This document shows, piece after piece, positions 8,491 through 63,565 of a stretch of 64,000 nt of DNA. The position numbers and the translations under genes are program-made. Origin of the DNA: an uncultured Patescibacteria group bacterium. GTDB lineage: Bacteria > Patescibacteriota > Gracilibacteria > BD1-5 > UBA6164. The stretch is from NCBI GenBank assembly GCA_963926055.1, contig CAWUVK010000004.1, positions 40,934 through 104,933 on the forward strand, written 5' to 3'. The notes under the pieces were generated by a model. It saw nothing but the letters and a program-made list of their open reading frames with translations. It searched no databases and was not told the origin of the DNA. How positions within the stretch are numbered: position 1 is the stretch's first letter; each line of letters begins with the position of its first letter.

Positions 8491-9084
8491 ATGTACGATT
8501 GACCACAACGTAAAAAATTACGATTAAAGGATTACGATTATTCAAGTGATTGATATTATTTTATAACTATTTGTACGAAAAATAGGGAAGAATTTTTTGG
8601 TGAAATTATTGATAGAAAAATGTTTTTGAATGATTATGGAAAAATCGTCAAAAATGAAATTTTCAAAACACCTGAATTGCGTCAAGAAATAAAAATAGAT
8701 GATTTTGTAATAATGCCAAATCATTTACATTTAATAATAATTATTCAAAACAAAAATGTAGGGTGCGATTGCATCACACCGAAAGACATCGCACCGAAAG
8801 ACATCACACCGAAAGACATCGCACAGTGAAAATATATAAGACCGTGAGAAAATAACGGAACGATGCAATCGTTCCCTACGTTATCACGTGTAATTCGTTG
8901 ATTAAAATCAACGATAACTAAACAAATTCGTTATGAAATGTGAGATTTTAATTTTGGATGGCAAAAATCATTTTTTGATGTAATTATAAAAAACCAAGAC
9001 CAGTTAGATAAAACGAGGCAATATATTATTGATAATCCATGCAAGTGGGCAGAAGATAAAAATAATGTAATAAATATAAAATAA
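8491..9084 (+). CDS. REP-associated tyrosine transposase (RAYT, IS200/IS605 Y1 HUH superfamily)
   Basis: 197 aa. It has a Shine-Dalgarno AAGGAG 4 nt upstream. Motifs are YYFITICTKNRE, the HUH motif MPNHLHLII, and C-terminal FKS..TKQI plus RQYIIDNP containing the candidate catalytic Tyr. Track ORF 8620-8829 is its middle. Confidence 0.8.
8758..8879. repeat. inverted pair of GTAG-headed 18-mers inside the RAYT ORF
   Basis: GTAGGGTGCGATTGCATC (8758-8775, plus strand) and GTAGGGAACGATTGCATC (8879-8862, minus strand) match at 16 of 18 positions. The right copy also forms its own 8-bp hairpin, GGAACGAT gca ATCGTTCC. Confidence 0.7.
8775..8824 (+). repeat. tandem 15-nt repeat, 3.3 copies, in frame
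   Basis: C[A/G]CACCGAAAGACAT occurs three times plus a partial copy. It encodes ITPKD-IAPKD-ITPKD-IA within the RAYT. Confidence 0.9.
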
Positions 9085-12169: not shown

Positions 12170-13255
12170 TTGTATATGGTGTCATTAAATAAACAATTAG
12201 TAAAGATTAATACCCAAGAAGTAGCAGAAATAGAAGAAGTATTTTCTCAAGCAAAAGACTTTAGAGAAGTTGGTGAGAAAATTACAGCTCCAATTGATAG
12301 CATTATTTCAGAAACTACAAAAATAATAGATGCAGATCCTATTATGAATGTTTCATTAGAATTAAGTAAAATGAATTCTGAAGTATCTGGGGTGTATGAT
12401 TCGATTATTGACAATGATGGGAAAGTTATGAAAGTTCTAAAATCAATACCTTTCCTAGGTTGATTGGCAAAGTCATTAGATAAAAAATATGATGAAGCTA
12501 AATTTAATATAAAATCAATTGAATGAAAAATAGAAATGATTTTTTCATGATTTGATATATCATATGATTCTGTAAATACTTCTATTGATATGCAAATGAA
12601 ATTTTTAGATTCTCTTGAACTTAATTTGCAAAAGGTAATCGCATATAAAGAATTTGTTCAACAAAAATCTGAGGAATTTTCACAAAAACTTTCAACAGTT
12701 GAAGATGAAGCTCAAAAACTTAAATATGAAATGTTTGGAAGAAATGTAGAATTTTTTTTAGGAAATTTAACAGTATTGGTTTGAAACCTTGAAATGGCTA
12801 AAAAAAGATTATTAATGAGATTAGATTCAGCTAATAAATTATCTCTTGCCATGAGTTCAAGTAGGCCAATTTTTAAAACTTTGTTATCAACTGCGATTAT
12901 AGAAACTTCAAGCCAAAAAGCAATTGATGCTTCTATTCAGGCGATGGATGTGATGGGATCTACAATTGATAAAATGACGAGTGACCTTACTGATAAAGCA
13001 ATTGAAAGTTCTAAAAAAGCTGAACAAATATCATCTAAACCAGTAGTTTCAGCAACTGTTTTTATTGAAAATGTTACAAAATTAAAAAATCATTTTAATG
13101 AAATTGAAGATTATAGATTACAAGTAGCAAAAGAAGCTCAAGAAGAAAGAAAACTATTTGCTGAAGCAAAAAATCAGCTATCAGAATTAAAAACTTTAGA
13201 CGCTCAAGATGCTCAAGATTTTAAATCACAACTCATTTCACCAGAAGAAAAATAG
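12170..13255 (+). CDS. telA: TelA-family (toxic anion resistance / YaaN-like) protein
   Basis: Track fragments 12170-12463, 12590-12784 and 12794-13255 are in one frame, giving 361 aa. The protein is all-helical, with the layout and length typical of TelA. Confidence 0.65.
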
Positions 13256-13366
13256 TATTATCAAATAAAAAAAATATAAGTCAAAAAAACTTATGTTTTT
13301 TTATTGTAAAATCTAAGTGTTTGTTATATAATTAAAACTAATGTTGTAGTACTAATAAATAGATTC

Positions 13367-14776
13367 ATGAATATAAATCAGAGCTTGAAAGAAATATACA
13401 AGCTGTATTCTGCATGAGATTATAAACAAGCAGAAATCCTGAATAATCAGATTTTAGAAAAATATCCAGAAAATGTTTACGCATCTCGCTATGAACAACT
13501 CATTCAAAAAAATATTCAGTCGGAGTTATCAGCTGAAAAAAAATGACCAATTCCAAAGGTAAAATCAAAAGCATTGAAATGTCCACATTGTACTTCTAAA
13601 ATTCCATATTCATGATTAACTCAAGAAAATAGAAAAAGAATTGATAATAAAGATTTAGATAATTTAGAAATTAAGTGTCCTTATTGTCATACAAAATTTA
13701 TACTACAAAATGCAAAATCAAGTTCTTACTTATGAATCAAAATTTGAGATAAGATTACATATAAACAGAAGTCATATAGAACTGTATGATATGTAAAATA
13801 TGAAGGAAAATGGTATGAATGAAGATATTCTGGTAAAACGGTATATTTAGAATGGATTTTATTGTGAAATGATAATAGTTATTTATATTTTTCAGAATGA
13901 TATTCCATTGATGAATGAAATAAGACTTATGAATTTGAATTTTCAAAAAAAGTTATTCCGAAAACGATTTTATGAGTTGATTTTAATGCTCAGAAATTTG
14001 ATGCAGTCTGAACAAACATAGAATTTACAGAATTTAATAAAATGAAAGTAACAAATGTATATGGAGAAAATTCTAAATCCTATACTATATGAGAAAAAAT
14101 TCAGCTCGCACCCATTGATATAAATGGACAATCACTAGTATATGAAAAAGAAACTTCTGGAAATCAGCAAGAAGTAGGAATATATGAAACTCATACTGTG
14201 AAACTTTCAGTAGCAGAAAGAATATTTAATACAAAATCAGATATTAATAAATCGGCAAATGTAAATTTACCTAAAATTTCAAATTACTTATCATTTTTGT
14301 ATCTATTGATTCCATTATTTATTATCTGATTATCATCTCCAATAGTTTTTCTGTGAATTATTTTTATGCTGGGGTCACTATATATAATATTTTGCGATCA
14401 TTCAAGAAAGACATATATACTCTATTGCTTTTGAATTTTATGACCATTACTACTATTTTTATTTATTCCTTTTTTTAATAATATTATTGAAAAAAAAGAA
14501 CTCATTGAAATTTGAAATATTCAAATGTGAAACAAATATGAATTAGATTTCTGAGCATTGCAAGTATCTCCACAAAATATCATAAATACACAAAATTATA
14601 GTTATTGATGAAAAAGAATATATTATTCTCAAAATATAGGGCTAAAATTTTCCATTAAAACACAAGAAGATAAAGACATAATTCAAAAAATCAATTCATG
14701 GAACTCTTGATATGAAAATCCACAAAATATAATGTTAAAAAATATGTTTGAATGAAATATTTATAAACTTAAATAA
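13367..14776 (+). CDS. Zn-ribbon + DUF4178 + multi-TM protein
   Basis: 469 aa with TGA read as Gly. It has two CxxC pairs (CPHC, CPYC). The DUF4178-like core is GDKITYKQKSYRTVGYVKYEGKWYEGRYSGKTVYLEWILLGNDNSYLYFSEG. It then has 3-4 hydrophobic helices. Confidence 0.65.
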
Positions 14777-14781
14777 ACTCT

Positions 14782-15015
14782 ATGACTAAATGGATATTGC
14801 TTATGGCTGTAGTGTACTGAGGTATATGATATGCAATTGCTTCGACTACTTCATATATTCCTATCTCTCAACAAATTGATGTAAAATCAATGAGTGTACA
14901 AAAACCAGAATATATAGAGAAAAAATGGGATGTATGTGAAGGAACATGTAAAAACTATAGTTCAACATCAACGTCAACTTCAAGTTGGTGAAGTGCGAGC
15001 TATGGGTGAAAATAA
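14782..15015 (+). CDS. small membrane-anchored Ser/Thr-rich protein (77 aa)
   Basis: It has an N-terminal hydrophobic helix and starts 6 nt after the previous stop. No family recognised. Confidence 0.45.
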
Positions 15016-15046
15016 ATATAAATTTTAATTTAATAAAAATATTATT

Positions 15047-15262
15047 ATGGAAATAACAGTTTTAATTCAAGGATTAGTAGGAACAATTATTTATTCATTA
15101 TTATGAATATTCATTATGGCAATGAGTTTCTATTTAATAGAAAAAATGACAAAATTTTCTTTAAAAAAAGAAATAGTTGAAGATGAAAATATGGCATTAT
15201 GAACTATGTTTGCAGGTTTTTTTATTGCAGTTTCAATTATTATTGCTGCAGCTATTATATAA
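15047..15262 (+). CDS. DUF350-family small membrane protein (YjfL-like)
   Basis: 71 aa with two TM helices. The layout ...LIEKMTKFSLKKEIVEDENMALG.. is typical of DUF350. Confidence 0.65.
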
Positions 15263-15277
15263 TATAATTTTAAATTT

Positions 15278-16306
15278 ATGTGATTATTTGATATTTTTAA
15301 AGACCAAACAATGGATGTTATTAGATGGGAAAACCCATCAGATGATTTACTTGTTTGGAAATGGCCACAAAATCTGGATGAAATTAAAAACAATTCTTCA
15401 TTGGTTATAGACCCATGATTAGCTGCAATTTTTATACATAATTGAAAAATAGAAGCTATTCAAACGGATTCAGGTAAATGGAATTTAGAAACAGATAATA
15501 TTCCTTTTATTTCAAGTATGAAAAATATTATGAGTTGATTTGAAACTCATGATAAAGCATCTGTTTATTTTATTAAAACTCATCAACTTACGAATCAAAA
15601 ATGGGGAACTCCAAATAGTATTACTTATGTAGATCCTTCATATAATTTTCCAGTTGAGTTGAGAGCATTTGGTAATTTTACTTTTAAAATTACTGATTTA
15701 GAAAATTTTTGGGTAAATTATGTAGCCAATGTTGCAGAAGTGAAAACAGATGATATTAGAATGATTATTACTGATAGAATTGTTGGTAATATCGCTACGT
15801 TATTTGCAACAAAACAAGTAAGTTATAATACTATTGATTCTTTCACTTTAGAAATTACTCAAGAACTTACGTGACTTACAAAAGATGAATTTGCTAAATT
15901 ATGACTCGAACTTAATGATTTTAGAATAGAAGATATCAATTTCACAGATAAAACTAATGAATATATTGATAAAATTATTTCTAAGATTGCAGATGTTGGA
16001 GCTATAAATGCTACAAAAAATATTGATCCATCAGCAATGTCAAATTACTCAGCAGTTGAAAAACTCAACATTATGAATAAAGCAGCTGAATCAGGATGAT
16101 CTGCTGGAGATATGATGTGAGCTGGAATGTGAATGGCAATGGGTATGAACATGGCAAATGATATGCAAGAACAACAAAAAAAAGTTTCTGTAGATGATAA
16201 TTCTGCTGAAGTAAAATTACAAAAAATAAAATCATTATTTGATAAATGACTTATTTCTCAAGAAGATTATGATACAAAAAAATCAGAGATTTTAGAAAAT
16301 TTATAA
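15278..16306 (+). CDS. SPFH-like (COG4260 virion-core-like) protein with a C-terminal SHOCT motif
   Basis: 342 aa. The N-terminus is MGLFDIFKDQTMDVIRWENPSDDLLVWKWP, followed by KWGTPNSI and LRAFGNFTFKITD. A Gly/Met-rich linker follows. The C-terminus KLQKIKSLFDKGLISQEDYDTKKSEIL is a SHOCT signature. Track ORF 15659-15874 is in the same frame. Confidence 0.75.
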
Positions 16307-16436
16307 AAAAACTTACCATTTAGGTAAGTTTTTTATATTTTTTTAAATTTTAAAAAACTTAATTTTAATATTATTTTGTTTTTTTTATGAATTAATTAAG
16401 ATAATAATATATTTTTTACATACAAAATTTTCAAAG

Positions 16437-17921
16437 ATGATATTATTTTTTACTCTAGTTATTGCTATTTGTGGTATTTTATACGAACTGATTTTATGAA
16501 CGTTGAGTTCATATTTAATTTGAGATAGTGTGAGACAATTTTCATTTACTATCTGATTTTTTATGACGGGTATGTGAATAGGAGCGTATTGTTCTCGTTA
16601 TTTGGAAAAAAATGCTATTAAAAACTTTTTAAGAATAGAGCTTTTATTATCAGTATTAGGGGCTTCTAGTGTCATTATTTTAAAAATTTTATATCTACAT
16701 TTTGGTTTATATTGAGATTTATTCCAGTTCTTTTATTTATTGGTGACTATGTTAGTATGAGCTTTTGTTTGAGGAGAATTACCTTTAGTGGCAACTATTT
16801 ATAAAGAATTAAAAATAAAAACTCAATCGATTATTAGTGATTTATTTACATTTGATTATATAGGATGACTCGTTGCTAGTTTGATTTTCCCACTTCTATT
16901 ACTTCCTATTTTAGGGTTGTATAATGTATCTATTTTTATTGGGAGTTTAAATCTATTAGTTTGTATTTTTTACATTCAATATCTTACAAAATTTAATATT
17001 AATTTAAAAAAATATTATATAGTTGTTGCTATGATTATCGTGTATTTTTTATGATTATTTTTTGCTTCAGCCAAGTTTGAAAATTATTATTTAAGAAATT
17101 ATTATAAAGAGCCAATATTAGAAACATATCAATCAGATTATCAAAATATTGTATTAACAAAAAGATGAGAAGATTTTCGTATGTATATAAATGGCAATAT
17201 ACAATTTTTAAGTTTAGATGAGAATAGGTATCATGAAGCTTTAGTAGATTGGCCAATAAAATTATTAGAAAGTAAAATAAATCTGAATGTATTAGTCTTA
17301 TGATGATGAGATGGTTTAGCTGTGAGGAATTTACTTGAGTATTGAAAAATTGATGAAATAACTTTAGTTGATTTGGATCCTAAAATTACACAAATAGCAC
17401 AAACTCAAACAGATTTACTTGCTTTAAATAAGAATTCTTTATGAAATTCAAAAGTGAAAATAATTCATATGGATGCCATGAAATATTTACAAAAAACTGA
17501 TAAAAAATTTGATTTTGTGATTGCAGATTTTCCTGATCCTAGAGATGTGGCAACGGCAAAGTTATATTCAAAAGAAATGTATTTATGAATCGATAAAGTA
17601 TTAAATATGCAATGAGTTTTTGTTACTCAGGCATCAAATGCATTTTTTTCAAATAAAGCATTTTGGAGTATTGATAAAACTTTATGAACTGTTTTTTGAG
17701 AAACTTTAGCGTACCATAGATATTTACCGAGTTTTTGAGATTGGTGATTTGTTTGAGTACAAAAATGAGGATTTAAAAATAAAAATATTTGTGAAGATTT
17801 ATGATGTACTTTTTTTGATGAAGATTATAAACAACCAATAGAACAAATTAACATAAATACTTTGTCTCATCCAGAAATAATAGAATATTATGGAGAATGA
17901 TATAAAAAATTTAACCTATAA
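16437..17921 (+). CDS. membrane-fused spermidine-synthase-like protein (polyamine aminopropyltransferase family)
   Basis: 494 aa. About 7 N-terminal TM helices precede the catalytic domain, which has VLVLGGGDGLAVR (GGG is TGA TGA TGA at 17301-17309), LVDLDP and IADFPDPRD. Confidence 0.8.
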
Positions 17922-17926
17922 TACGT

Positions 17927-18556
17927 ATGTGAGAAATTTTTATCCCGGAAAAAATATTTGATATAATTCATATCAATAATATTTGAGAAAATATATTACA
18001 AATATTTGAGAAACATTTTTGAAAATATACAAAACAATCATTTGAATCAACCTATTGTAAATGAATAAAATTTGAATTTGAACAGTTAGACCAAGATTTA
18101 GTGAGTATTTTAAATGGTGAGTTTGGAAAATTTTATTTTATTGATTACAATTTTGATAAACAAAATATTATCACTCATGGAAAAAAAATCTTATGAATTT
18201 GAGATATTTGAGATGAAATTAAGAGTATTGAAAATAAATTTGAAAAAATTATTCAAGAATTATCGAGTAATAATTTATTAACGATTTCTAAAAAAGAAAA
18301 AATACATAAAAATATAAAAGAAACATTTTTCACTATATCTTGAATTTTATTTTTACTCTATTGACTCAAACAAAAAATTATAGAAAACCTCAATGATTTA
18401 GAAAATATTGATGATAATCAAATTGAACTGAAATCACAAGCTGCGCTATTACGTGAAAATAATATTACTAAAAAAATTGAAATACAAGCTCAAATATATA
18501 CATTTGAAGCAAAATCGCAATTATTTTTCCAAACAATACATTCATTACTTTTATAA
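17927..18556 (+). CDS. hypothetical single-TM protein (209 aa)
   Basis: It starts 6 nt after the SpeE-like stop and is open with TGA read as Gly to TAA at 18554-18556. It has one hydrophobic helix, FFTISGILFLLYGL. Confidence 0.5.
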
Positions 18557-18557
18557 A

Positions 18558-18785
18558 ATGTTCTACTACGAAGAAATAGAAAAAAAATACTATATTTGGA
18601 CGGATAAAACCAAAGGGAAATATTGACCATTTTCATGAATTTATATAAAAAATATTCATTTATGAAATACTTCAGAAGATTTTCAGGTTGCAAAATATCC
18701 AGGGCATAAATTTGCAATTTGATTTTGAGAAAGAAAAATCTGTGTTATAAATACATCAGAAATTTATGAAATTATAAATAAATAA
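18558..18785 (+). CDS. hypothetical small protein (75 aa)
   Basis: It starts 2 nt after the previous stop and is open with TGA read as Gly. No family recognised. Confidence 0.45.
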
Positions 18786-18809
18786 AATATTATTTAAGCA
18801 AAATAAATT

Positions 18810-19376
18810 ATGCAATGTCCATCTTGTGGGAGACCAATAAGTTATGAAGAAAAATTCACAAAAATACTCAGTTGTGGTTACTGTAACTCTATTTTAGAGT
18901 TGGGAACTTGAGAGCTAACTAAAATTTGAGAACAAACTGAATTTATAGATTTTCCTTCTATTTTCGAAGTATGAAAAACTATTGATTATCAAGGAAAAAA
19001 AATAAGTATAAAAGGGCAATTACGCTACGAATATGATTGAGGTTTTTTTGATAAATTTTATGCAACAGTAGATGGGAAAACGATGTATATAAGAGAAGAC
19101 GATTGAAAAATAACATTTAGTGAAGATGGGAAATTCCAAAATGGGACTATGACTTTGATAGATAAATCGGCAGGAAGTAAAATTAATCTATGATGAAAAG
19201 ATTTATTTGTCCAAGAAGTGTGAACATTTAAACTTATTTCTATGAAAGGTTCAGTACAAAATATGCTTATTCCAGGTAAAAAATATGAGTATTTAGATGG
19301 AATTTATAATCAAAAGATGTATTTCCTAGAAAAAGAAATCTGAGCAGATAAATTAAGAATATGTAAACAAATATAA
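18810..19376 (+). CDS. Zn-ribbon + DUF4178 protein (second copy)
   Basis: 188 aa. CPSC...CGYC is followed by GKTIDYQGKKISIKGQLRYEYDGGFFDKFYATVDGKTMYIRED. Confidence 0.65.
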
Positions 19377-19377
19377 T

Positions 19378-20154
19378 ATGAAAAAACAAGAATTAATACA
19401 ATATTTAGAAGATTTATTACAAAATAAAGAATATAAAGATAGCTCAAAAAATGGATTGCAAGTTGATTGTACAAAAGATGAAATCGTAAAAATCTGATAT
19501 GCAGTAGATGCAAGCACTTATATTTTTGATAAAGCAATTGAAGAAAATGTAGATTTGATTTTGACACATCATGGGATTTTTTGGGGGCATGAAGAAACCC
19601 TAACGTGAGTGGCGTATAAAAGAGCGAATAAATTACTTTCAAATGATATAGCATTATATTCGTCTCATATTCCATTAGATGCAAACCCAAAAGTAGGGAA
19701 TAACATTGGTTTAATAAAAGCATTTGTTAGAATTTTTGGTCTCAGAGAAGAAGACTATCAAATAGAAGATTTTTGAGAATATAAAGGGAAAACTATAGGT
19801 TTTGGAATAAAATTCAAACATAAATTACATATTTCAAATATGATAATGCCATTTGCAGAACAAATGCAATTACAAAAAAAATTATATAACTTTGGACATA
19901 AAACATATTTCAATTCTTTAGCAATCATTTCTTGAGGTGCTGCAAAAGATTTTATTCAAGCAAAAAATCAGTGATACGATATATTTTTAACAGGAGAAGC
20001 AAATCATGCACAAATGATTGCGGCAAAAGAACACGAGCAAACTATGATGCTTTGAGGGCATTATGAAACTGAAAAGATAGGAGTGAAATTATTAGCCTAC
20101 CATCTTCAAGAAAAATTTGGTCTTAAAATAGAATTTCTTGATGAAAAATATTAA
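19378..20154 (+). CDS. Nif3-like dinuclear metal centre protein (YbgI family)
   Basis: 258 aa. Motifs are NGLQV, DLILTHHG.FW, SSHIPLDA and the C-terminal GHYETE. Confidence 0.85.
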
Positions 20155-41949: not shown

Positions 41950-42912
41950 ATGGAAAATTATACTGAAAATTCATTATTAGACATGATTTATGATGAAAAT
42001 CAAAACCTAAAAAGTGTGTTGTTGGAAATCAAAAATTTTAATGAAAATTTTTCATTTATTGAGACATTTGCAGATAATATTTCGATGAAAATAAATGATA
42101 TTATTTTGTTGGAAGAATGAGATGAGGATTATTTTAATGAAGAAAGGGAGTATTTAGCAGAAAGAATCCTTAGACTTGATGATGCATTGATGGAAATGTG
42201 ATTAGCAACGTATGAGTATAGAGGAGAAGAATTTTATGGAAATTGAGAAATAAATGCTTTTGGTTGTAAAATTTGAATAAAAATTTCTGATATTGAAATA
42301 TTTGAAGAATTCATTTCTACTCAAAAATCATCGAATATTGATGAGTTATATGAATTTATATATAGTTGCATTCTGGATAGTCAAAATCGTGAAAATTTTA
42401 GAAATATTCAACCTGAAAGTAATGAAAATAATTTAGATATTATTTGAAATTTACAACAAATGTGAGAAATTTCTCATTCAGGTTTAAGGGAATTAGTACA
42501 AAATTATCATAATTGATCATTACACCAAAGTTTACTTTCAAAATTTTATATCACGAAATTTCGTGAATTTTTCCAGCCTAAAAGTATAGAATTTATAGGA
42601 GATTTTCAAGAATTAGAAAAAGTTCGGAAAGAAGGATTATGAGCATTTGAATCAATTATGTCATCGAATTCACCAGATTGAAACTATAAAAAGTCTGCTT
42701 TAGAATTATGAACTTTTTTAGATATGTCACTTGATTACACATATCAATTGATCATACAAGAATTATTACAATTAACGAATAGGATTTCAAATCCAAAGAC
42801 ATCAAAAGAAACAATAAAGTTTAAAAATTTAGAGTATTTACATTTTGTTCAAAAATTTTATCATCTATATGATAAAAGAAAACTTTTTCTGAAGAAAAAT
42901 ATGGATTTATAA
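41950..42912 (+). CDS. hypothetical protein, paralogue 1 (320 aa)
   Basis: In frame with track ORF 42724-42912. It shares blocks with the next gene (YRGEEFY, FEEFISTQ, SLHQSLLSKF). Confidence 0.55.
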
Positions 42913-43024: not shown

Positions 43025-43990
43025 ATGGGAAACTTCGGGAAATTAGATTTTTTAGAATGTATTGAAAATCAAGAATATTCTTTAAAATATATTTTAGATG
43101 AAATTATCGAATTTAATAAAGAGTATGGATTTATTGAATCATATGCAAATTCTGTAAAACAAAGAATCAATAAATTAGCCTTATGTGATGAATTCTTTGA
43201 TGATGACAGATTAAAGAAAACTGAAGAAATATTACGTTTTGGTACAAGTTTAGAAAAAATGTGATTAGAAATATATGATTATAGGTGAGAAGAGTTTTAT
43301 GAAAATAATAGACCATCTGCATCTGGAAATAAAATTGGTTTAAATATTTTTGATTGAGAATTATTTAAAGAATTTATTTCTACTCAAAATCCAGAAATTT
43401 CAGAAAAATTTTATACATTTTTATTTCAAGTTATTTTGGATAATTCCCTCAAAAGTGATTTCTACTGAGAGTTAAAAAATTGAGAAGAAAAAAATAAATC
43501 GATTTCTAATCAGCTTGAATATTTAGAAGATTTATGAAATATAACATCTCCTCATTTACAATATCTAATTGAAGATTATAAAAATCGGTCACTGTATCAG
43601 AGCCTTTTATCAAAATTTATTTTCACAAATTATACTCCAGAATTATCAATTACTTCATTACAAAATATCAAAAACTTTACAGTCATAGAAAATGCCTGGG
43701 ATGAGAGTTTTAAAGCATTAAAAGTTATTATGGATTCTGAATCATTTGAAAGTCATCATGAAAATCATTTGAGATTATTAGCAGATTTTTTAAATGATTG
43801 TATTAATAGTACCTATAAACTTATTTTTAGTGATTTAATCCAAGCAAAAGAAGATTATGATTCTGGAAATAAACAAAATTTATATAAAAATAATGAACAT
43901 AAAATTTTTGTACAAGAATTTTATAAAAAACTCAATACAAGAAAGTATTTAATCGAACAAATTTTATGAGAAAAAAAAGATGAAAATTAA
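43025..43990 (+). CDS. hypothetical protein, paralogue 2 (321 aa)
   Basis: Track fragments 43025-43264 and 43730-43969 are in frame. It shares YRGEEFY, FKEFISTQ and SLYQSLLSKF with the previous gene. About 65 nt of the upstream regions also match (41883-41949 versus 42960-43024). Confidence 0.55.
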
Positions 43991-48799: not shown

Positions 48800-48933
48800 T
48801 TAATAAAAAAGAAGAAATGTTACATTTCTTCTTTTTTTTGTATTGGAATAAAAATTCATACAATAGTAAAAATTTTAAAAAATCTGAGTTGGTTGTATTT
48901 CTTAGACATAAATTTATATAACTTTACATTTTC

Positions 48934-49329
48934 TCAAAGATCTTGTGAAAGTGAAAAAATAACTTCTTTAATATAATAAAATTTATAATTTTTTATAAGT
49001 TTAGGATGTTTACTGCTTACTCTAAATATAAAATCTAATTCTTTATGAATCTTTTGTTGTAAATCAATAGTGTCATAAAAATTATCTAAAAATTTTCTTT
49101 GATTAAATAAAGTAAGGCGAAGACGTAATATTTCTGAAAATATTTCTTCAGGCTTAACTATGTAGTGTTGAGATATTTCATACAAAGCAGGGATAATCTG
49201 ACTTTTTTTATGAAATAAGATATCAATATTTTTTCCTAATTTTATTAATTTAAGATGAAATAAATACAGAAAAAGAAAATATCATATCCCAACGATCGCG
49301 AAAATTCACAATATTATATAAGTGACCAT
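48934..49329 (-). CDS. hypothetical membrane protein (131 aa)
   Basis: Track ORF 48934-49185 extends in frame through two TGAs to ATG at 49329, which adds a TM helix. Confidence 0.5.
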
Positions 49330-57424: not shown

Positions 57425-60400
57425 ATGAAAAATTTTTATATGTGAATTAAATTATTTTTTAGTTTATTATTTTCTCTTTTTCTTCCCATAGGATATTTAT
57501 ATGCAGACTGTACTATACCTAATGGTACAGGAGTAGAAAATATTGAATATGTACATAAATGGGCAAGTGCTAATATACTAGCAGACACTAGTAGTTGGAG
57601 AGACTGTAATTCAAATGATACATTTTGATCTATATGTACCCCATGAGATAGATGTAAATACAGCAGTTTTATGTGAACAGATGGTAAATTTTGTCAGCAA
57701 ACAACTCAAATAAAATCAAGTGAATGTGAGATTACTAGTTGTGATGAGTGATATATACTTAGTTGAGATAGTTGTATTGAAGATACTTCTGGATGATCTT
57801 GTGTATACAGTTATTCAAGTTCATGTTCTCAATGATATTCATATAATTCATCTACAAACAAATGTGAATTAATAAATGTAGCAAGCCCTTGTCAGTCTGG
57901 TTTTACATATAATTCAAGCACTTGAAAATGTGAAGATAGTTGGACTTGAAAAGGTTTTTGTGAAGAAAGCTGATTTAAGGCTACTTGAGATAATTTAAAT
58001 TGTGAAAAAAGAATTGTTTCAGACCCATTCTACATTGGAGGAGATATTTATAACAACTGAATATTAGCTTGTGGAACATGAACATCTTATAATGTTATTT
58101 CAAAAAAATGTGAATGATTTATTACAAATAATGAATCTCCAAAATGTAATATGTATATAGATTCATTTTATGATTCAGATAATTGGACAACAATTAGAAA
58201 CACTCAATTCCAATGAAATAAAACTGGTTCAAATAATAAATGTGTTTGAAAAAAAATAAAAAATTATTCATGTACGTCTTGATTTATACTAAATTCATCC
58301 ACTAAACAGTGTGAAAAAAAAGAACAACAAAATCCATCATGTTCTATAGGTAACCTTATTACTAGTTGACCAAATGAATGAAAATGTGAATTAGAATCTA
58401 ACTGTTGAGTCGATTCAGTTAATTGAGGTTGGAGTGATTATTCTTATGGATGATGGTCAATTTGTGATACTTCCACAGGTACTAAAACTAGACAATGAAC
58501 TAGAACATGTACGAACCCTACACCATTTTGAGGTTGATCAGATTGTATCTGAGCCAATCAAAATACAGAATCTACAACGTGTAGTGTAAATGCGTCTTGT
58601 TGAGCAAGTGTAAATACTTGTAATACATGAACCTTTTCTGACCGTACTGATTCTAATTGAATGGCAGTGTGGAGTTGTGTAGGATTAAATTCATGAGAAA
58701 ATAAAATTTGTCAATATAATACAGATAATACAGCTCCAACAGGTACAGTATCATATTCACCTTCAAGTTGGACAAATCAAAATGTAACTATTAGTGTATC
58801 ATGTAGTGATAGTGGATCATGATGTGATCAACCTACATATTCAAAAACTGTGACTTTAAATGGAGCTTGAAATATCACTATTAGAGATAAAGTATGAAAC
58901 ACTAGAAATATTTCATATAATGTTACAAATATAGATAATACACCACCAAGTTGAGAAGTATCTTATACTCAAAATTCTTCTACTTGAAATGTAGTAATCA
59001 CAGTTGAGTGTAGTGATAGTGGATCATGATGCAAGCAATCTACATATACAAAATCAGTAAGTTCAAATGGTACCGGCATAATCTCTATTGCAGATAATGC
59101 TTGAAACTCTAGCAATGTTTCATACAATGTTGTAAATATAGATAATATAGCACCCACAGGAAAAGTTTCGTACTCACCATCAAATTGGACAAATTGAAAT
59201 GTAGTAATCACAGTTGAGTGTAGTGATAGTGGATCATGATGTAATCAATCTACATATACAAAATCAGTAAGTTCAAATGGTTCTGGTATAATTACTATTT
59301 CAGATAATGCCTGAAATACAAAAAATATATCATATAATGTTACAAATATAGATAAAGTAGCTCCAACAGCTACAATATCTCATAATCAAGGATGGTATAA
59401 CAATATACAAACTATTACTTTTTCAGCAAAAGATACTGGATGAAGTAGGTTAAAACGAATATATTTGCAAGAAAGTGTAAATGGTTGAAATTATACTTAT
59501 GTTTCAGCAGCGAATTATGATAATTTAAATTCATCTACAAATGTAACAAAAACATTTACTCGCTCTGCTATAAATGGAAATAATTATAAATATAGATTAA
59601 TATCTTGGGATTATACAGGACAATATAGTATTGTATATGGACCAAATTCAGCAATATATTTTGATACTGTTGCTCCAGATGAACCTAATATAAATTCATC
59701 TACGCATCAAAATAATGTGTGGTTAAATAATAATAATCCTTCTTTTTGAATATCAAAAAATAATGTAGGACCAAGTAATTCTACAAATTATTATTGTATA
59801 GATACAAATAATAGTTGTGATCCAAATATATCTTGAGATTATAAATCATATACTAATTTATCAAATGGTGTTTGATATTTTAGAGCTAAAACGTGTGATA
59901 CTGGTTGATGTAGCGGTGTAAAATCGTTTACAATTAAAACAGATATGACAAAAGCTACATGATCATTAGATTATAATACAGGTTGGTATAATAAACAGCA
60001 AATAATTTCTTTTTGAGCTACAGATACTGGATGAAGTAAATTAAAAAGAATTCGGTTACAGGTGAGTAAAGATGGAAATTCTTTTGAATATATTGCAAAT
60101 ACAGATTATAATAATCTTAACACAGATAGTATATATAAAGAATATATCCAAATTCCTAATACTAATATAATTGATAATACTCAATGAGATGTAGTGGAAA
60201 CTCCTTTAGATAATTACGAAGCTACACCTATTGATCAACAACCTGGTATTGATATTCCAAGTTCATGAAATCCAGATTCAACAATATCAAATCCTACTAT
60301 TCCTGACAATCAAATACAACCGAATGATCCTTCGGAAAATGCTATTATGTTTCAATCACAAAACATAGCATACCAAGTTAATATGGATGAAAAAACTTGA

Positions 60401-63400
60401 GAATTAAATAATTATCAATATTTATTTTATCTTCCTACTTCTTTAACTTCTTTAAATAATAGTGGTTATAAGTATAGGCTTATTGTTTGGGATAATGCTG
60501 GAAATATAACTTTTGTACCTGGACCAAGTGGAACAATTAATTTTGATACTATAAAACCTACTGTTTGAGCAACTAATTCGGATGAAAATCTATGGAAAAA
60601 CACCAAAGAAACAGTTACATTAAGTGCTGGAGATCAATGATGAAGTGGAGTTAAATATTCTAAATATATCTGGAATAATAATTCATGTGTAACTAATTGA
60701 GTACTATACTCAAATGGTGATACTACTACGATTCCAGCAGAATGAAAGAATACATTATATTTATGTGCAAGTGATAATGCAGGAAATATACAAACCTGGT
60801 CAGGTATTTATAAATTTGATGAAACAAATCCAGAAGTGAATCATAATTATTTATTTGATGATACATGGACAAATGCATCAAGTGTTATTAATTTTAAAGC
60901 AACTGATCCAAATCCTACTATTCATTCTGACATTAAAGAGACAAAATATTGTAGAAATTCTGAATGTAATCCAAATATTTCTGGAAATAGTATTACTTTG
61001 ACTTTAGATGATGAAAGTATTTACAGATTTCAAACTATTGATCATGCTGGAAATAAAAGTCCTATAAAAGAAGTAAGTGTAAAAATTGAAGATAATACAC
61101 CAAATATATCTGTAGATTTCACTGATACAATTGGACAAAATTATACAGCTTGAAATTGGATAAACTCAAATATAAATGCAAAAATAAATTGTAGAGATAC
61201 AGATGAATCTATAAATTCAGGCTGTAATCCAGATACATATCAATTTAATCTTACAGATAATAAAGATACATGTTTAAGTAATGTAAGTTGATTTGAAAAC
61301 TATACATCTCAATGAGTAAATATTACAACATTAAATAATACAAATAAAGTTCTCTATATTTGTATGAGAGCAAAAGATTTTGCAGAGAATGGATATAGTT
61401 ATTCAGATGTGTATGAAGTAAAAATAGATAAAATTATTCCAAATTATGAAGATATTTCAGTAAATTCTTGATATCCAGATACAAATAGTAAATTACATGC
61501 AAGTGAAAGAGAGTTGTCATATTCTATTGATGATAAATCATGAGCTCCAATAGTAAAAATAGAATGATACTTTGAAGATTATGAAAATAATGATTCATTT
61601 ACTCTTTCTAAAACATCTTCTTGAAATACTTTAACTTTCATGTGAAATATGACAAAAGTTGATAATGAGGAAAGTATATCAGATGGTATGAGAACCTATA
61701 GTTTTCATATTACTAAAATTGAAGATCAAGCGGGAAATAGTATTTCTAGAAATATAACTAACCCTATAAAAACGTATAATTATAATGTTTATGCAAATAT
61801 AGATTCTAATCTAAAAATTTCATTAGTAAAAAATGATTTAAACTCTCATAATATTGCCAATGGAGAAATTAATAATATGAATATTGAAGTTAGAGATGAA
61901 TTTAATAATATAATTATACCAATTGCAAATATTTGAAGAAAAGTAAATATGGTTTTTAGTGGACAAAATACATTAAAATTAAATCAATATAATACTATAA
62001 ATTCAGATTCCTCAATATTTGTGAATATTCCAAACTCAGAGACATTATTTAAAAATGATATTTTTAACTCTTGAGATAATCAATACAATAATTTGCTTTC
62101 AAATAATTGAATATATACTTTTGAATACAAAGTTTATACTCCAACATTTAATGGAATAAAAACAAATGGCCAACAATATGTAAATGGTTGAGCTCATATT
62201 AGTGAAATCGAAGTAAAAACTCAACAAGATTTAGGTATAAACAATGTTTCAGAAACTGAATTTGTGTGAAATAAAATTGAACCAAATATTGATTTTGATT
62301 TTGCACCATTAATTTCAACTCAATTTGACTGAGATTTTTCTAAAAATTATTCTTTGAATCAAGATTTAGAAAATATAATTTCTTTTATAAATACAGATTC
62401 TAGTAAACCACTTTCAAACCAAAAAGTATTTTTATGATTTGGAAAAGCAACTCAAAATACTAATGGTACGCAAGAAAATTTAAATTTAGTAGTAAATTGA
62501 AGTAGTATTTCTGAATGACATCAAACAAATATTACAAATTTAAAAAGTTTTGATAATTTTAATCAAAAAAGTTTTAGCTCTGAAATTAAACAAACAAAAG
62601 AGAGTTTAACGGATAATGAAAAAAAGCATTATATTTCAACTCATATTTGATATACTTTAGATGGAAATAATATTTTTTACAATAGTGATATTATTTGAAA
62701 AACGAATTATTCTGCGGGAACACTTTTAGATAGTTCTACAAATCTTTGAGTAAAAGTACTTTGAAATGTACAATCAAAGAATCAAACAGATATTTCTGAT
62801 AATCAATCTGAAACTGATATTTATCAATTATGAAATAATACAAAAGCTGATTTAAAAGAAAAAATTAAGAAAAATGTAGCTGAAATTTCAATGAATGTAT
62901 CTGCTGAGGAAGTTTCACAAATTACAAATATTTGATGAAATTCTTGGGATAATTCAATAATTGCTCCAAAGTTATCAAATCAAAAAATATTATTAACAAA
63001 ATGAGAAGTAAAATTATCTTCAGCACAAAAATATACAGGGAAGAAAACATTAGTAATACAATGATGAAACCTTTATATAACTGAAAATCTTTTAGCTTCA
63101 AATAAAGTAAATGATATTTTATGAATTATAGTTCTGGAAGATGAAAATGGAAATGGTTGAAATGTTTATATAGATCCAAGTGTAACAGCTTTAGAAGCAG
63201 TAATTTTTGCTGATAAATCTTTATTAAATTACGATGGAAGTAATGTAGTTACAGATGGAAGACAATTAAAAAATCAATTTTATTTCTATTGAACATTGTT
63301 TAGTGAAAATACACTTTGAGGATATGTTTCTCAACAATGTCCATATTTTGTTTCTAATTGTGATTTTGATACAGCTGAAAAATATGATTTAAATTTTCTA

Positions 63401-63565
63401 AGATCATATTATGTCTATGATTCAAATGATGATGGAAATTTAGATGCAGCAAACTGAAATTCATATTTCAATTCTTGAGATGCATATTTTGCTTATCCTG
63501 TTATATTCGAATATAACTCTAATATCCAAAATAATCCTCCAGATTTATTTGAAATTAATCAATAA
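57425..63565 (+). CDS. giant secreted surface protein (about 2046 aa): Cys-rich EGF-like modules, TSP1-like repeat, tandem Ig-like domains
   Basis: This is one frame (track fragments 60836-61153 and 61649-61936 are in frame), open only with TGA read as Gly, from ATG at 57425 to TAA at 63563-63565. It has a signal peptide. Repeated modules have the form C..G[YF]..N....KCE. The TSP1-like segment is GGWSDYSYGGWSICD...R.GTRTCTNPTPFGGGSDC. Many ..W.N..V.I....D..SG. domains follow. Confidence 0.85.
58724..59353 (+). repeat. three tandem ~210-nt (70-aa) domain repeats inside the giant gene
   Basis: Copies 2 and 3 are near-identical over more than 80 nt (TTGAAATGTAGTAATCACAGTTGAGTGTAGTGATAGTGGATCATGATG...), starting at 58984 and 59194. 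Each copy encodes APTG.VSYSP..WTN.NV.I.V.CSDSGSGC....Y.K.V..NG.G.I.I.D..GN...ISYNV.NID. Confidence 0.85.

Follow-up and report, generated by a model that had tools for sequence, protein, structure and literature searches.

Operons in which a seven-transmembrane (7TM) spermine synthase is encoded together with DUF350 (YjfL), a Ctha_1186 lipoprotein and DUF4178 have been described with a CesT/Tir-PspA dyad, as in Shewanella oneidensis AAN56744-AAN56747 (Ravi et al. 2024, mSystems, PMC11237479). The same survey reported PspA-less variants, in which Band-7-2TM-SHOCT is found in the place of the dyad along with an S-adenosylmethionine (AdoMet) decarboxylase as well as a polyamine oxidase, and it gave the Mycobacterium tuberculosis proteins CCP45394.1 and CCP45395.1 as instances of a related form without PspA. 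The role inferred there is polyamine monitoring or aminopropylation of other substrates, Li et al. 2019 being cited for the latter, and TelA, the Candidate Phyla Radiation (CPR) and Patescibacteria are not mentioned in the main text of that paper. For the Escherichia coli proteins YjfC and YgiC a peptide-spermidine ligase activity with an unknown physiological substrate is given, on the authority of Pederick et al. 2023, in the passage of PMC11762307 that cites it. In our study, a 64,000-nucleotide (nt) stretch of DNA from an uncultured Patescibacteria group bacterium of the Gracilibacteria (contig CAWUVK010000004.1; this whole stretch is called the window) has been analysed, in which nine genes, g1 to g9, lie at 12170-19376, all on the + strand. 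The cluster is a mosaic of the group-2 core of Ravi et al. and their Band-7-SHOCT variant, i.e. a lineage-specific version of a described module. Hence the PspA-less form, to which an earlier sequence-only reading of this DNA had drawn attention, is not novel, and the kinship with PspA-associated polyamine operons proposed in that reading is correct.

Our preferred explanation is that Gracilibacteria have here their own version of a membrane module that is widespread, in which 7TM-SpeE, DUF350, Zn-ribbon/DUF4178 and a small anchored Ser/Gly-rich protein are joined to an SPFH-SHOCT scaffold protein and to g7 and g8, and that it probably serves a membrane-associated aminopropyl-transfer or polyamine role in envelope maintenance. 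This explanation is drawn from the domain identities, the colinearity of g2-g9, the linkage to AdoMet decarboxylase, the presence of the same triad elsewhere, the published inference, the hairpin at the internal junction, the occurrence of TelA in an Alteromonas operon and the homology of g1 to TelA.

The genes become apparent only with the genetic code of the lineage. With the bacterial code (table 11) the cluster region consists of short broken open reading frames (ORFs) and every cluster gene is fragmented, due to which table-11 ORF calling was dropped for code 25. Reading TGA as sense increased the summed length of ORFs of at least 100 amino acids (aa) in the window from 5,495 to 29,102 aa. 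In 17 long genes TGA accounts for 3.4% of the codons against only 3.3% for the four GGN glycine codons together (TGG, 0.6%), and hence TGA is assigned to Gly (code 25, Gracilibacteria), in agreement with the source names of the homologues, which are Gracilibacteria, Altimarinota or Patescibacteria. All nine same-strand ORFs are then present, with intergenic gaps of 111, 5, 31, 15, 130, 5, 1 and 24 nt from g1 to g9, and the earlier description of nine same-strand genes separated by about 1-130 nt requires a single correction, as g1 probably starts with the ATG at 12176 (359 aa, as in its homologues) and not with the TTG at 12170. In-frame TGA codons number 25 in g6 and 91 in a 2,046-aa ORF at 57425-63565. 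Many of the public homologues have been translated with TGA as Trp ('MWEIF...' against 'MGEIF...' in the window), which degrades alignments and word-index searches for this lineage.

The enzyme of the cluster is g6 (16437-17921), in which an N-terminal multi-transmembrane (TM) domain of about 7 helices is fused to a SpeE-like polyamine aminopropyltransferase domain. It matched Pfam Spermine_synth with E 6.6e-32 and the NCBIfam equivalog NF002956 / PRK03612 with 487.9 bits (cutoff 472) over residues 2-491, the TM domain included. The best match in PDB is the thermospermine synthase 6bq2 (E 4.8e-28), and the YHE, GGGDG, VDLD, DFPDP (DxxDP), TQA and PSFGDW motifs all align with those of solved spermidine and thermospermine synthases. 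The 7-TM-fused spermidine-synthase-like enzyme with intact GGGDG and DFPDP motifs, recognized earlier from the sequence, is thus well founded; aminopropyl transfer is its predicted activity, and the identity of the acceptor is likewise a matter of prediction. A sequence search of the genome contigs with g6 yielded three loci only. The hydropathy estimate, which is a crude guide to TM helices and topology, gave 2-3 helices for g2, one for g3, two for g4 and at least five strong ones for g6, with g1, g5, g8 and g9 being soluble.

Two further members were identified above their Pfam cutoffs, as had been claimed for both of them. The 71-aa g4 (15047-15262) is a DUF350 protein of the YjfL family (PF03994; E 7.6e-14, 52.3 bits against a 26-bit cutoff), whose match is limited to the model's first half (profile positions 2-65 of 133) and which has two TM helices, i.e. 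a half-size form of the domain. In g5 (15278-16306), a soluble protein, Band_7_1 (PF13421; E 5.8e-42, 144.1 bits, cutoff 24) is followed by a C-terminal SHOCT motif (PF09851; E 6.6e-8, 32.5 bits, cutoff 27). Its identity across loci is 60-94%, and the linker GDxMGAGxGMAMGM between SPFH and SHOCT (16090-16170, residues about 272-296) is nearly invariant in 13 of 13 loci. This Gly/Met-rich linker may be a membrane-inserting element matching the published '2TM' segment; it did not score as TM by hydropathy.

The Zn-ribbon proteins g2 and g9 are more distant from their family. The 469-aa g2 (13367-14776), which is kept in all cluster-bearing loci, starts with a helical/TPR-like segment at its N-terminus and further comprises a Zn-ribbon, a DUF4178-like beta domain, 2-3 TM helices (two of them at 317-335 and 351-369) and a C-terminal domain; g9 (18810-19376, 188 aa) contains the Zn-ribbon and the DUF4178-like beta domain. 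Both stayed below the 25-bit Pfam cutoff of DUF4178 (PF13785), g2 with E 0.011 and 16.3 bits and g9 with E 4e-4 and 20.9 bits. Compared by hhalign, g2 (residues 71-267) and the g9 family proved homologous over the Zn-ribbon and the beta domain (95.5-95.8%, E about 1e-8). Moreover, P0213, which is 68% identical to g9, is called a DUF4178 protein by NCBI, and the counterparts in the Oligoflexia and Alteromonas operons exceed the cutoff; E was only 0.012, however, when the g9 profile was aligned with the single DUF4178 sequence of Alteromonas. The assignment of two Zn-ribbon DUF4178 proteins, made earlier, therefore misses the Pfam cutoff and finds its support, at a remote level, in profile-profile comparison and in context. 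The AlphaFold2 model of the 68%-identical g9 homologue is all-beta with a predicted local distance difference test (pLDDT) value of 86; Foldseek against PDB found no significant fold match for it (FABP-like folds only, TM-score <= 0.27), and the sequence profile matched only the Zn-ribbon in PDB.

The remaining three proteins are without family matches, which agrees with their earlier description as two orphans and a 77-aa peptide. The peptide, g3 (14782-15015), is a single-pass membrane protein that is strongly conserved in an alignment of 10 loci, with a TM anchor, the motif SYxPISxQIDxKTMS, CxGxC, a poly-Ser tail and an invariant C-terminal GGK. The 209-aa g7 (17927-18556) is lineage-specific and has an N-terminal IFIP...NGEFGKxYFxDYD, LLTNSKK, a short hydrophobic helix and a C-terminal part that is helical; searches of Pfam, NCBIfam and PADLOC gave no match, the four word-index homologues are mostly mistranslated with TGA as Trp, and hhalign showed no relation to PspA, g8 or g9. 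It follows SpeE in 13 of 13 loci at 34-81% identity. The 75-aa g8 (18558-18785), also lineage-specific, is kept after g7 in 13 loci (28-84% identity) and gave no Pfam or NCBIfam match and no detectable relation to other cluster proteins. Among g2, g3, g5, g7, g8 and g9, hidden paralogy was found by hhalign for the g2-g9 pair only.

The gene-order comparison, covering 25 loci, showed g2-g9 to be colinear in 11 of them, namely the window, L008, L011 (the complete genome of Gracilibacteria HOT-871), L013, L025-28, L030, L033 and L034. The proteins of these loci are only 28-71% identical to those of the window, and since the order is retained despite this divergence the clustering is not due to chance; g2-g9 are not scattered in these genomes. 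The conserved unit has eight genes, g2-g9, and not the nine proposed earlier. Genomes of the HOT-871-like kind, and others, have DUF2130, g2 to g9, Impact_N and YgjP in this order without g1, and across the phylum the cluster shares synteny with housekeeping genes instead of lying in variable islands.

Within the unit, a terminator scan (3 sites against 1.4 expected) located a strong hairpin directly after g5 at 16306-16334, which is bidirectional and terminator-like, with a 12-bp stem followed by a T-run, and marks a module boundary in the g5-g6 gap. Two transcription units, g2-g5 and g6-g9, are predicted on either side of it; the promoter scan was uninformative in this 25% GC DNA (76 sites found, 75 expected). 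The g5|g6 junction, 130 nt long in the window, is also the variable point of the cluster. In eight related loci it carries an AdoMet_dc gene of class 1b, divergently oriented and directly upstream of SpeE, accompanied or not by DUF1993, and in the lineage represented by L006, L015 and L017 about 11 kb of unrelated genes are inserted (L006 4739-11731, L015 1-4258 and L017 1-5968: DUF6159, an M50B peptidase, a second Band_7 protein of 494 aa, a ResIII helicase and others). The interpretation of the latter contigs as two 'split' loci was rejected, as their overlap makes one locus with the insertion. In one further Gracilibacteria lineage a block of ABC ATPase, McrB/McrC and AAA_14 genes lies between g8 and g9 (L012 2376-10000). 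This McrBC/ABC/AAA_14 block, the accumulation of insertions at the g5|g6 junction and the fact that SPFH and SHOCT proteins are known from some defence contexts raise the idea of an anti-phage defence or other conflict system built from membrane proteins and an SPFH scaffold. The synteny with housekeeping genes, an enzymology that points to polyamine chemistry and the lack of any PADLOC model match besides a generic methyltransferase-fold one make such a system highly improbable.

The absence of PspA was examined in 39 window proteins, none of which matched PspA/IM30 (PF04012), and neither were CesT/Tir-PspA dyad proteins detected among the scanned proteins. In relatives, precomputed Pfam annotation contained no PspA/IM30 within +/-10 kb, so the absence noted from the sequence holds for the scanned window proteins and no canonical pspA is annotated just outside the cluster in relatives within that distance. 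With E. coli PspA, g1 and g7 aligned only at E >= 0.18 (hhalign), and the candidate identity of g1 (12176-13255) as PspA was rejected at E 0.18.

The relationship of g1 to TelA is remote but extends over its full length. No Pfam TelA match (PF05816, gathering cutoff 30 bits) was obtained for g1 at E <= 0.1. PF05816 was matched weakly by 5 of 25 members of the g1 family, all below the cutoff (best E 3.2e-4), and no Pfam family other than TelA recurs in the weak matches of the divergent members. The TelA reference set was made of plasmid genes including RK2-type klaB, KlaB itself scoring 290 bits on PF05816. Against 7 TelA sequences the g1 family aligned with hhalign at 93.2% and E 3e-7 over 306 colinear columns, and against 9 at 96.4% and E 1.3e-9 over 311 columns, whereas the reversed alignments and 15 column shuffles all stayed at E >= 0.22. 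Because of this colinear profile alignment with clean controls, g1 is regarded as a remote full-length TelA homologue; the earlier label of TelA-like was right in this sense though it finds no support from Pfam. The TelA family profile was needed, as single TelA sequences gave no significant alignment with the g1 profile (KlaB, E 0.036; Alteromonas TelA, above 0.05). The AlphaFold2 model of g1 is all-helical with a long hairpin at moderate confidence (pLDDT 61). The Foldseek matches, all at E >= 0.1, were to unspecific helical bundles, to BAR domains and to PaxB, with neither ESCRT-III nor PspA among them, and the sequence searches of PDB with the single sequence and two profiles found nothing.

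A model that builds on the sequence-only reading treats the nine genes as an envelope-stress operon without PspA, led by the TelA-like protein as an obligatory effector in PspA's stead. In its favour are the remote homology of g1 to TelA, the same-strand position of g1 in the window, L008 and L005-7, where it precedes g2 by 111 nt, the genuine TelA that abuts DUF4178 in an Alteromonas operon with SpeE, speD and DUF350, and the failure to find pspA among the scanned window proteins. However, g1 adjoins g2 only in those loci; the complete HOT-871 genome and eight other loci have g2-g9 without g1 nearby. Conversely, g1 is very well conserved across Gracilibacteria (62-78% identity, 587 clusters) and occurs alone in other lineages, e.g. 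after rpoBC, being about 14 times commoner than the g9 family with 43 clusters. The adjacency is explained by relocation of the Impact-YgjP block, and distant g1 relatives are found in unrelated neighbourhoods without a link to the module. An obligatory TelA is thus quite improbable; as a possible partner TelA is retained, with independent support from the Alteromonas TelA between speD and DUF4178, and g1 is best described as an adjacent, possibly accessory gene outside the eight-gene unit. The g1 family is a narrow one, for which 84 representatives were counted in 1.84 billion proteins. In L049 and L050, the contexts of P0148, a divergent 268-aa g1/TelA-like relative is located among many small same-strand genes without Pfam match, an arrangement that looks like a phage or mobile element.

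Outside the CPR the nearest g6 homologues belong to Oligoflexia (33-34% identity), where DUF4178 comes first, followed by DUF350 in an 8-TM form, a small anchored protein and then 7TM-SpeE, ATP-grasp, GNAT and MFS. The triad of DUF4178, DUF350 and 7TM-SpeE with a small anchored protein is also present in Alteromonas mediterranea on plasmid pAMCP48-600 (NZ_CP018025.1, L047, 5956-13193), which encodes 7TM-SpeE, speD, a 169-aa protein, TelA, DUF4178, a 510-aa lipoprotein, DUF350 and a 127-aa protein. The TelA of this operon passes the PF05816 cutoff with 90.9 bits and its stop is overlapped by the DUF4178 start; the 169-, 510- and 127-aa proteins showed no profile similarity to g3, g7 or g8. TelA beside DUF4178 within the module thus occurs independently in a gamma-proteobacterium, and a bona fide TelA inside a SpeE/DUF350/DUF4178 module appears to be unreported. 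An Ensifer megaplasmid carries speD, DUF350, a 220-aa membrane protein without Pfam match, a 78-aa anchored protein and 7TM-SpeE. In Bacillus sp. N5-665 (L048 4259-9824) a bona fide TelA (181.6 bits) has genes for a flavin amine oxidase, ECF sigma factor, O-methyltransferase and DUF3974 protein in its vicinity, which may be taken as a second, loose hint that TelA is connected with the metabolism of amines.

These neighbourhoods also bear on ordinary polyamine biosynthesis, in which g6 would simply be the organism's synthase for spermidine, spermine or thermospermine, acting together with SpeD, and its neighbours would be unrelated membrane-protein genes held together by genome compaction. The polyamine aminopropyltransferase equivalog with all its catalytic motifs and the speD gene adjacent in eight related loci are what such an enzyme should show, and on a Ralstonia megaplasmid 7TM-SpeE has only an NAD(P)-binding (amine-oxidase-like) neighbour and neither DUF350 nor DUF4178. 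On the other hand, DUF350, DUF4178 and the small protein ending in Gly-Lys (GK) co-occur with 7TM-SpeE in four distant phyla, and gene order is kept at low protein identity (28-66%). Moreover, the membrane fusion is left unexplained for an enzyme of soluble metabolites, no putrescine-forming genes were found near the cluster among the scanned window proteins, and aminopropylation of other substrates has been put forward by Ravi et al. with reference to Li et al. 2019. Ordinary biosynthesis is hence considered rather unlikely, and the membrane-associated module remains the preferred explanation.

Several observations weigh against this preference. A homologue of AdoMet decarboxylase (speD), which should supply decarboxylated AdoMet (dcSAM), is missing from the 64-kb window; the lack of an adjacent copy, reported earlier, is thus true of the window and is specific to this lineage, as such a gene is found immediately upstream of SpeE in the eight related loci. 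In the CPR, further, neofunctionalisation of SpeD-like genes into ornithine or arginine decarboxylases can occur. The hydropathy estimate is too crude to place the SpeE domain and the tail of the small partner on the same or on opposite sides of the membrane, and the fold search with the DUF4178-like model offered no clue to function. The TelA-like g1 is unlinked to the cluster in most Gracilibacteria loci. The counts of 43 g9 against 587 g1 clusters suggest that the module is not universal in the phylum; with a distribution that looks patchy, the importance that had been deduced from about 7 kb being kept in a reduced genome is not borne out as an essential role.

Under the preferred explanation, dcSAM would be made by a class-1b AdoMet decarboxylase, whose gene stands beside SpeE in most relatives and would be elsewhere, or missing, in this genome. 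The membrane-bound SpeE could then transfer the aminopropyl group from dcSAM to an amine acceptor at the membrane, yielding a polyamine that is produced and supplied on site or, alternatively, an envelope component that carries the aminopropyl group. Assembly or regulation of the complex at the inner membrane face may fall to DUF350, the DUF4178 proteins and SPFH-SHOCT, and the overall role would be envelope maintenance or stress adaptation, analogous to that of PspA-linked polyamine operons. The TelA-like g1 may fill the peripheral helical-protein role that PspA has in the proteobacterial versions, without being an obligate member.

A candidate acceptor is suggested by the small anchored partner. 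The positional equivalents of g3, which share its anchored, Ser/Gly/Arg-rich plan, end with ...FGK in Oligoflexia, ...ESGK in Ensifer and ...SSGK in Alteromonas. In 4 of 5 module-bearing loci the partner is the sole ORF ending in GK (1 of 193 in the window, and 1 of 106, 87 and 73); L009 has one further such ORF among 49, and Ralstonia has none. The E. coli DUF1190 proteins YjfM and YgiB both end with Gly-Gly, each being encoded beside a peptide-spermidine ligase (RefSeq name). The SpeE-type partners and E. coli DUF1190 proteins were compared at window 14782-15015, L010 9547-9954, L009 2877-3311, L045 5714-5950, L047 10207-11739, L044 2388-3026 and L052 2245-2916. Gly-Lys ends of SpeE-module partners across four phyla, as against Gly-Gly in E. 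coli DUF1190, appear to be unreported. The pairing of a carboxylate-requiring ligase with ...GG and of an amine-requiring aminopropyltransferase with ...GK is chemically suggestive as far as the sequences go. It could mean that SpeE-type and ATP-grasp-type polyamine operons of the phage-shock-protein (PSP) kind are both modifiers of protein tails, the terminal Lys amine being aminopropylated in ...GK and spermidine being ligated to the terminal Gly carboxylate in ...GG. An envelope-tethered polyamine would result, with TelA, PspA and SPFH-SHOCT as interchangeable peripheral membrane partners. We regard this extension as unlikely; an obstacle to direct modification is the predicted extracytoplasmic position of the partner tails.

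Elsewhere in the window, an IS200-like Y1 transposase gene (PF01797, E 1.3e-8) lies at 8491-9084, upstream of the DUF2130 gene. Two adjacent same-strand genes at 41950-42912 and 43025-43990 encode proteins of 320 and 321 aa that are visibly similar, have no Pfam match and are probably tandem paralogues. A LemA-family membrane protein (PF04011, E 1.2e-6) at 48820-49329 on the - strand was the only other membrane-family match among 20 mid-sized proteins scanned. The Rfam search gave a single sub-threshold match, to the S4-Fusobacteriales ribosomal leader at 19484-19545 (31.2 bits, gathering 48.8) inside a NIF3 gene, which is probably due to chance.

The 7TM-SpeE/DUF350/DUF4178 neighbourhood spans many phyla without a known function, and the Gracilibacteria version separates the parts that travel together (SpeE, DUF350, two DUF4178, the GK-ended protein and SPFH-SHOCT) from those that are optional (PspA, TelA and an adjacent speD). 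The Gly-Lys against Gly-Gly ends and the recurring TelA lead to testable hypotheses on the missing acceptor and the missing PspA-like component.

In comparison to the group-2 operon of Ravi et al., the window shares 7TM-SpeE (g6), DUF350 (g4), DUF4178 (g2/g9, sub-threshold) and a small anchored or lipoprotein partner (g3), all on one strand. It differs by lacking the CesT/Tir-PspA dyad, by its half-size 2-TM DUF350, by having two Zn-ribbon DUF4178 paralogues, one of them membrane-anchored, by the addition of SPFH-SHOCT, g7 and g8, and by its host, a code-25 organism of the CPR, a group absent from the text of that survey. With the PspA-less variants it has in common Band-7/SHOCT in place of PspA and, in its relatives, a linked AdoMet decarboxylase. 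Whereas those variants were described for the ATP-grasp (glutathionylspermidine-synthetase-like) group, the window has 7TM-SpeE with neither ATP-grasp nor polyamine oxidase, and in place of the '2TM' segment there is the Gly/Met-rich linker, which does not score as TM. The TelA / KlaB family resembles g1 in its similar length, all-helical nature and colinearity over about 310 columns, whereas g1 itself has no Pfam match and its narrow family is confined, by named sources, to Gracilibacteria, Altimarinota or Patescibacteria. E. coli yjfIJKLMC and tolC-ygiBC likewise have a DUF350 (YjfL) membrane protein in the same operon as an anchored Ser/Gly-rich protein and an enzyme that handles polyamines; an ATP-grasp ligase, Gly-Gly partner ends and the lack of DUF4178 are their own features, as are PspA-like YjfJ and a CesT-like protein in yjf. 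The Alteromonas pAMCP48-600 operon is similar in having TelA directly upstream of DUF4178, 7TM-SpeE, DUF350 and a Gly-Lys partner with no PspA, whereas its TelA above the Pfam cutoff, its speD within the operon, its 8-TM DUF350 and its large GK-ended lipoprotein, without SPFH-SHOCT, g7 and g8, set it apart from the Gracilibacteria version.

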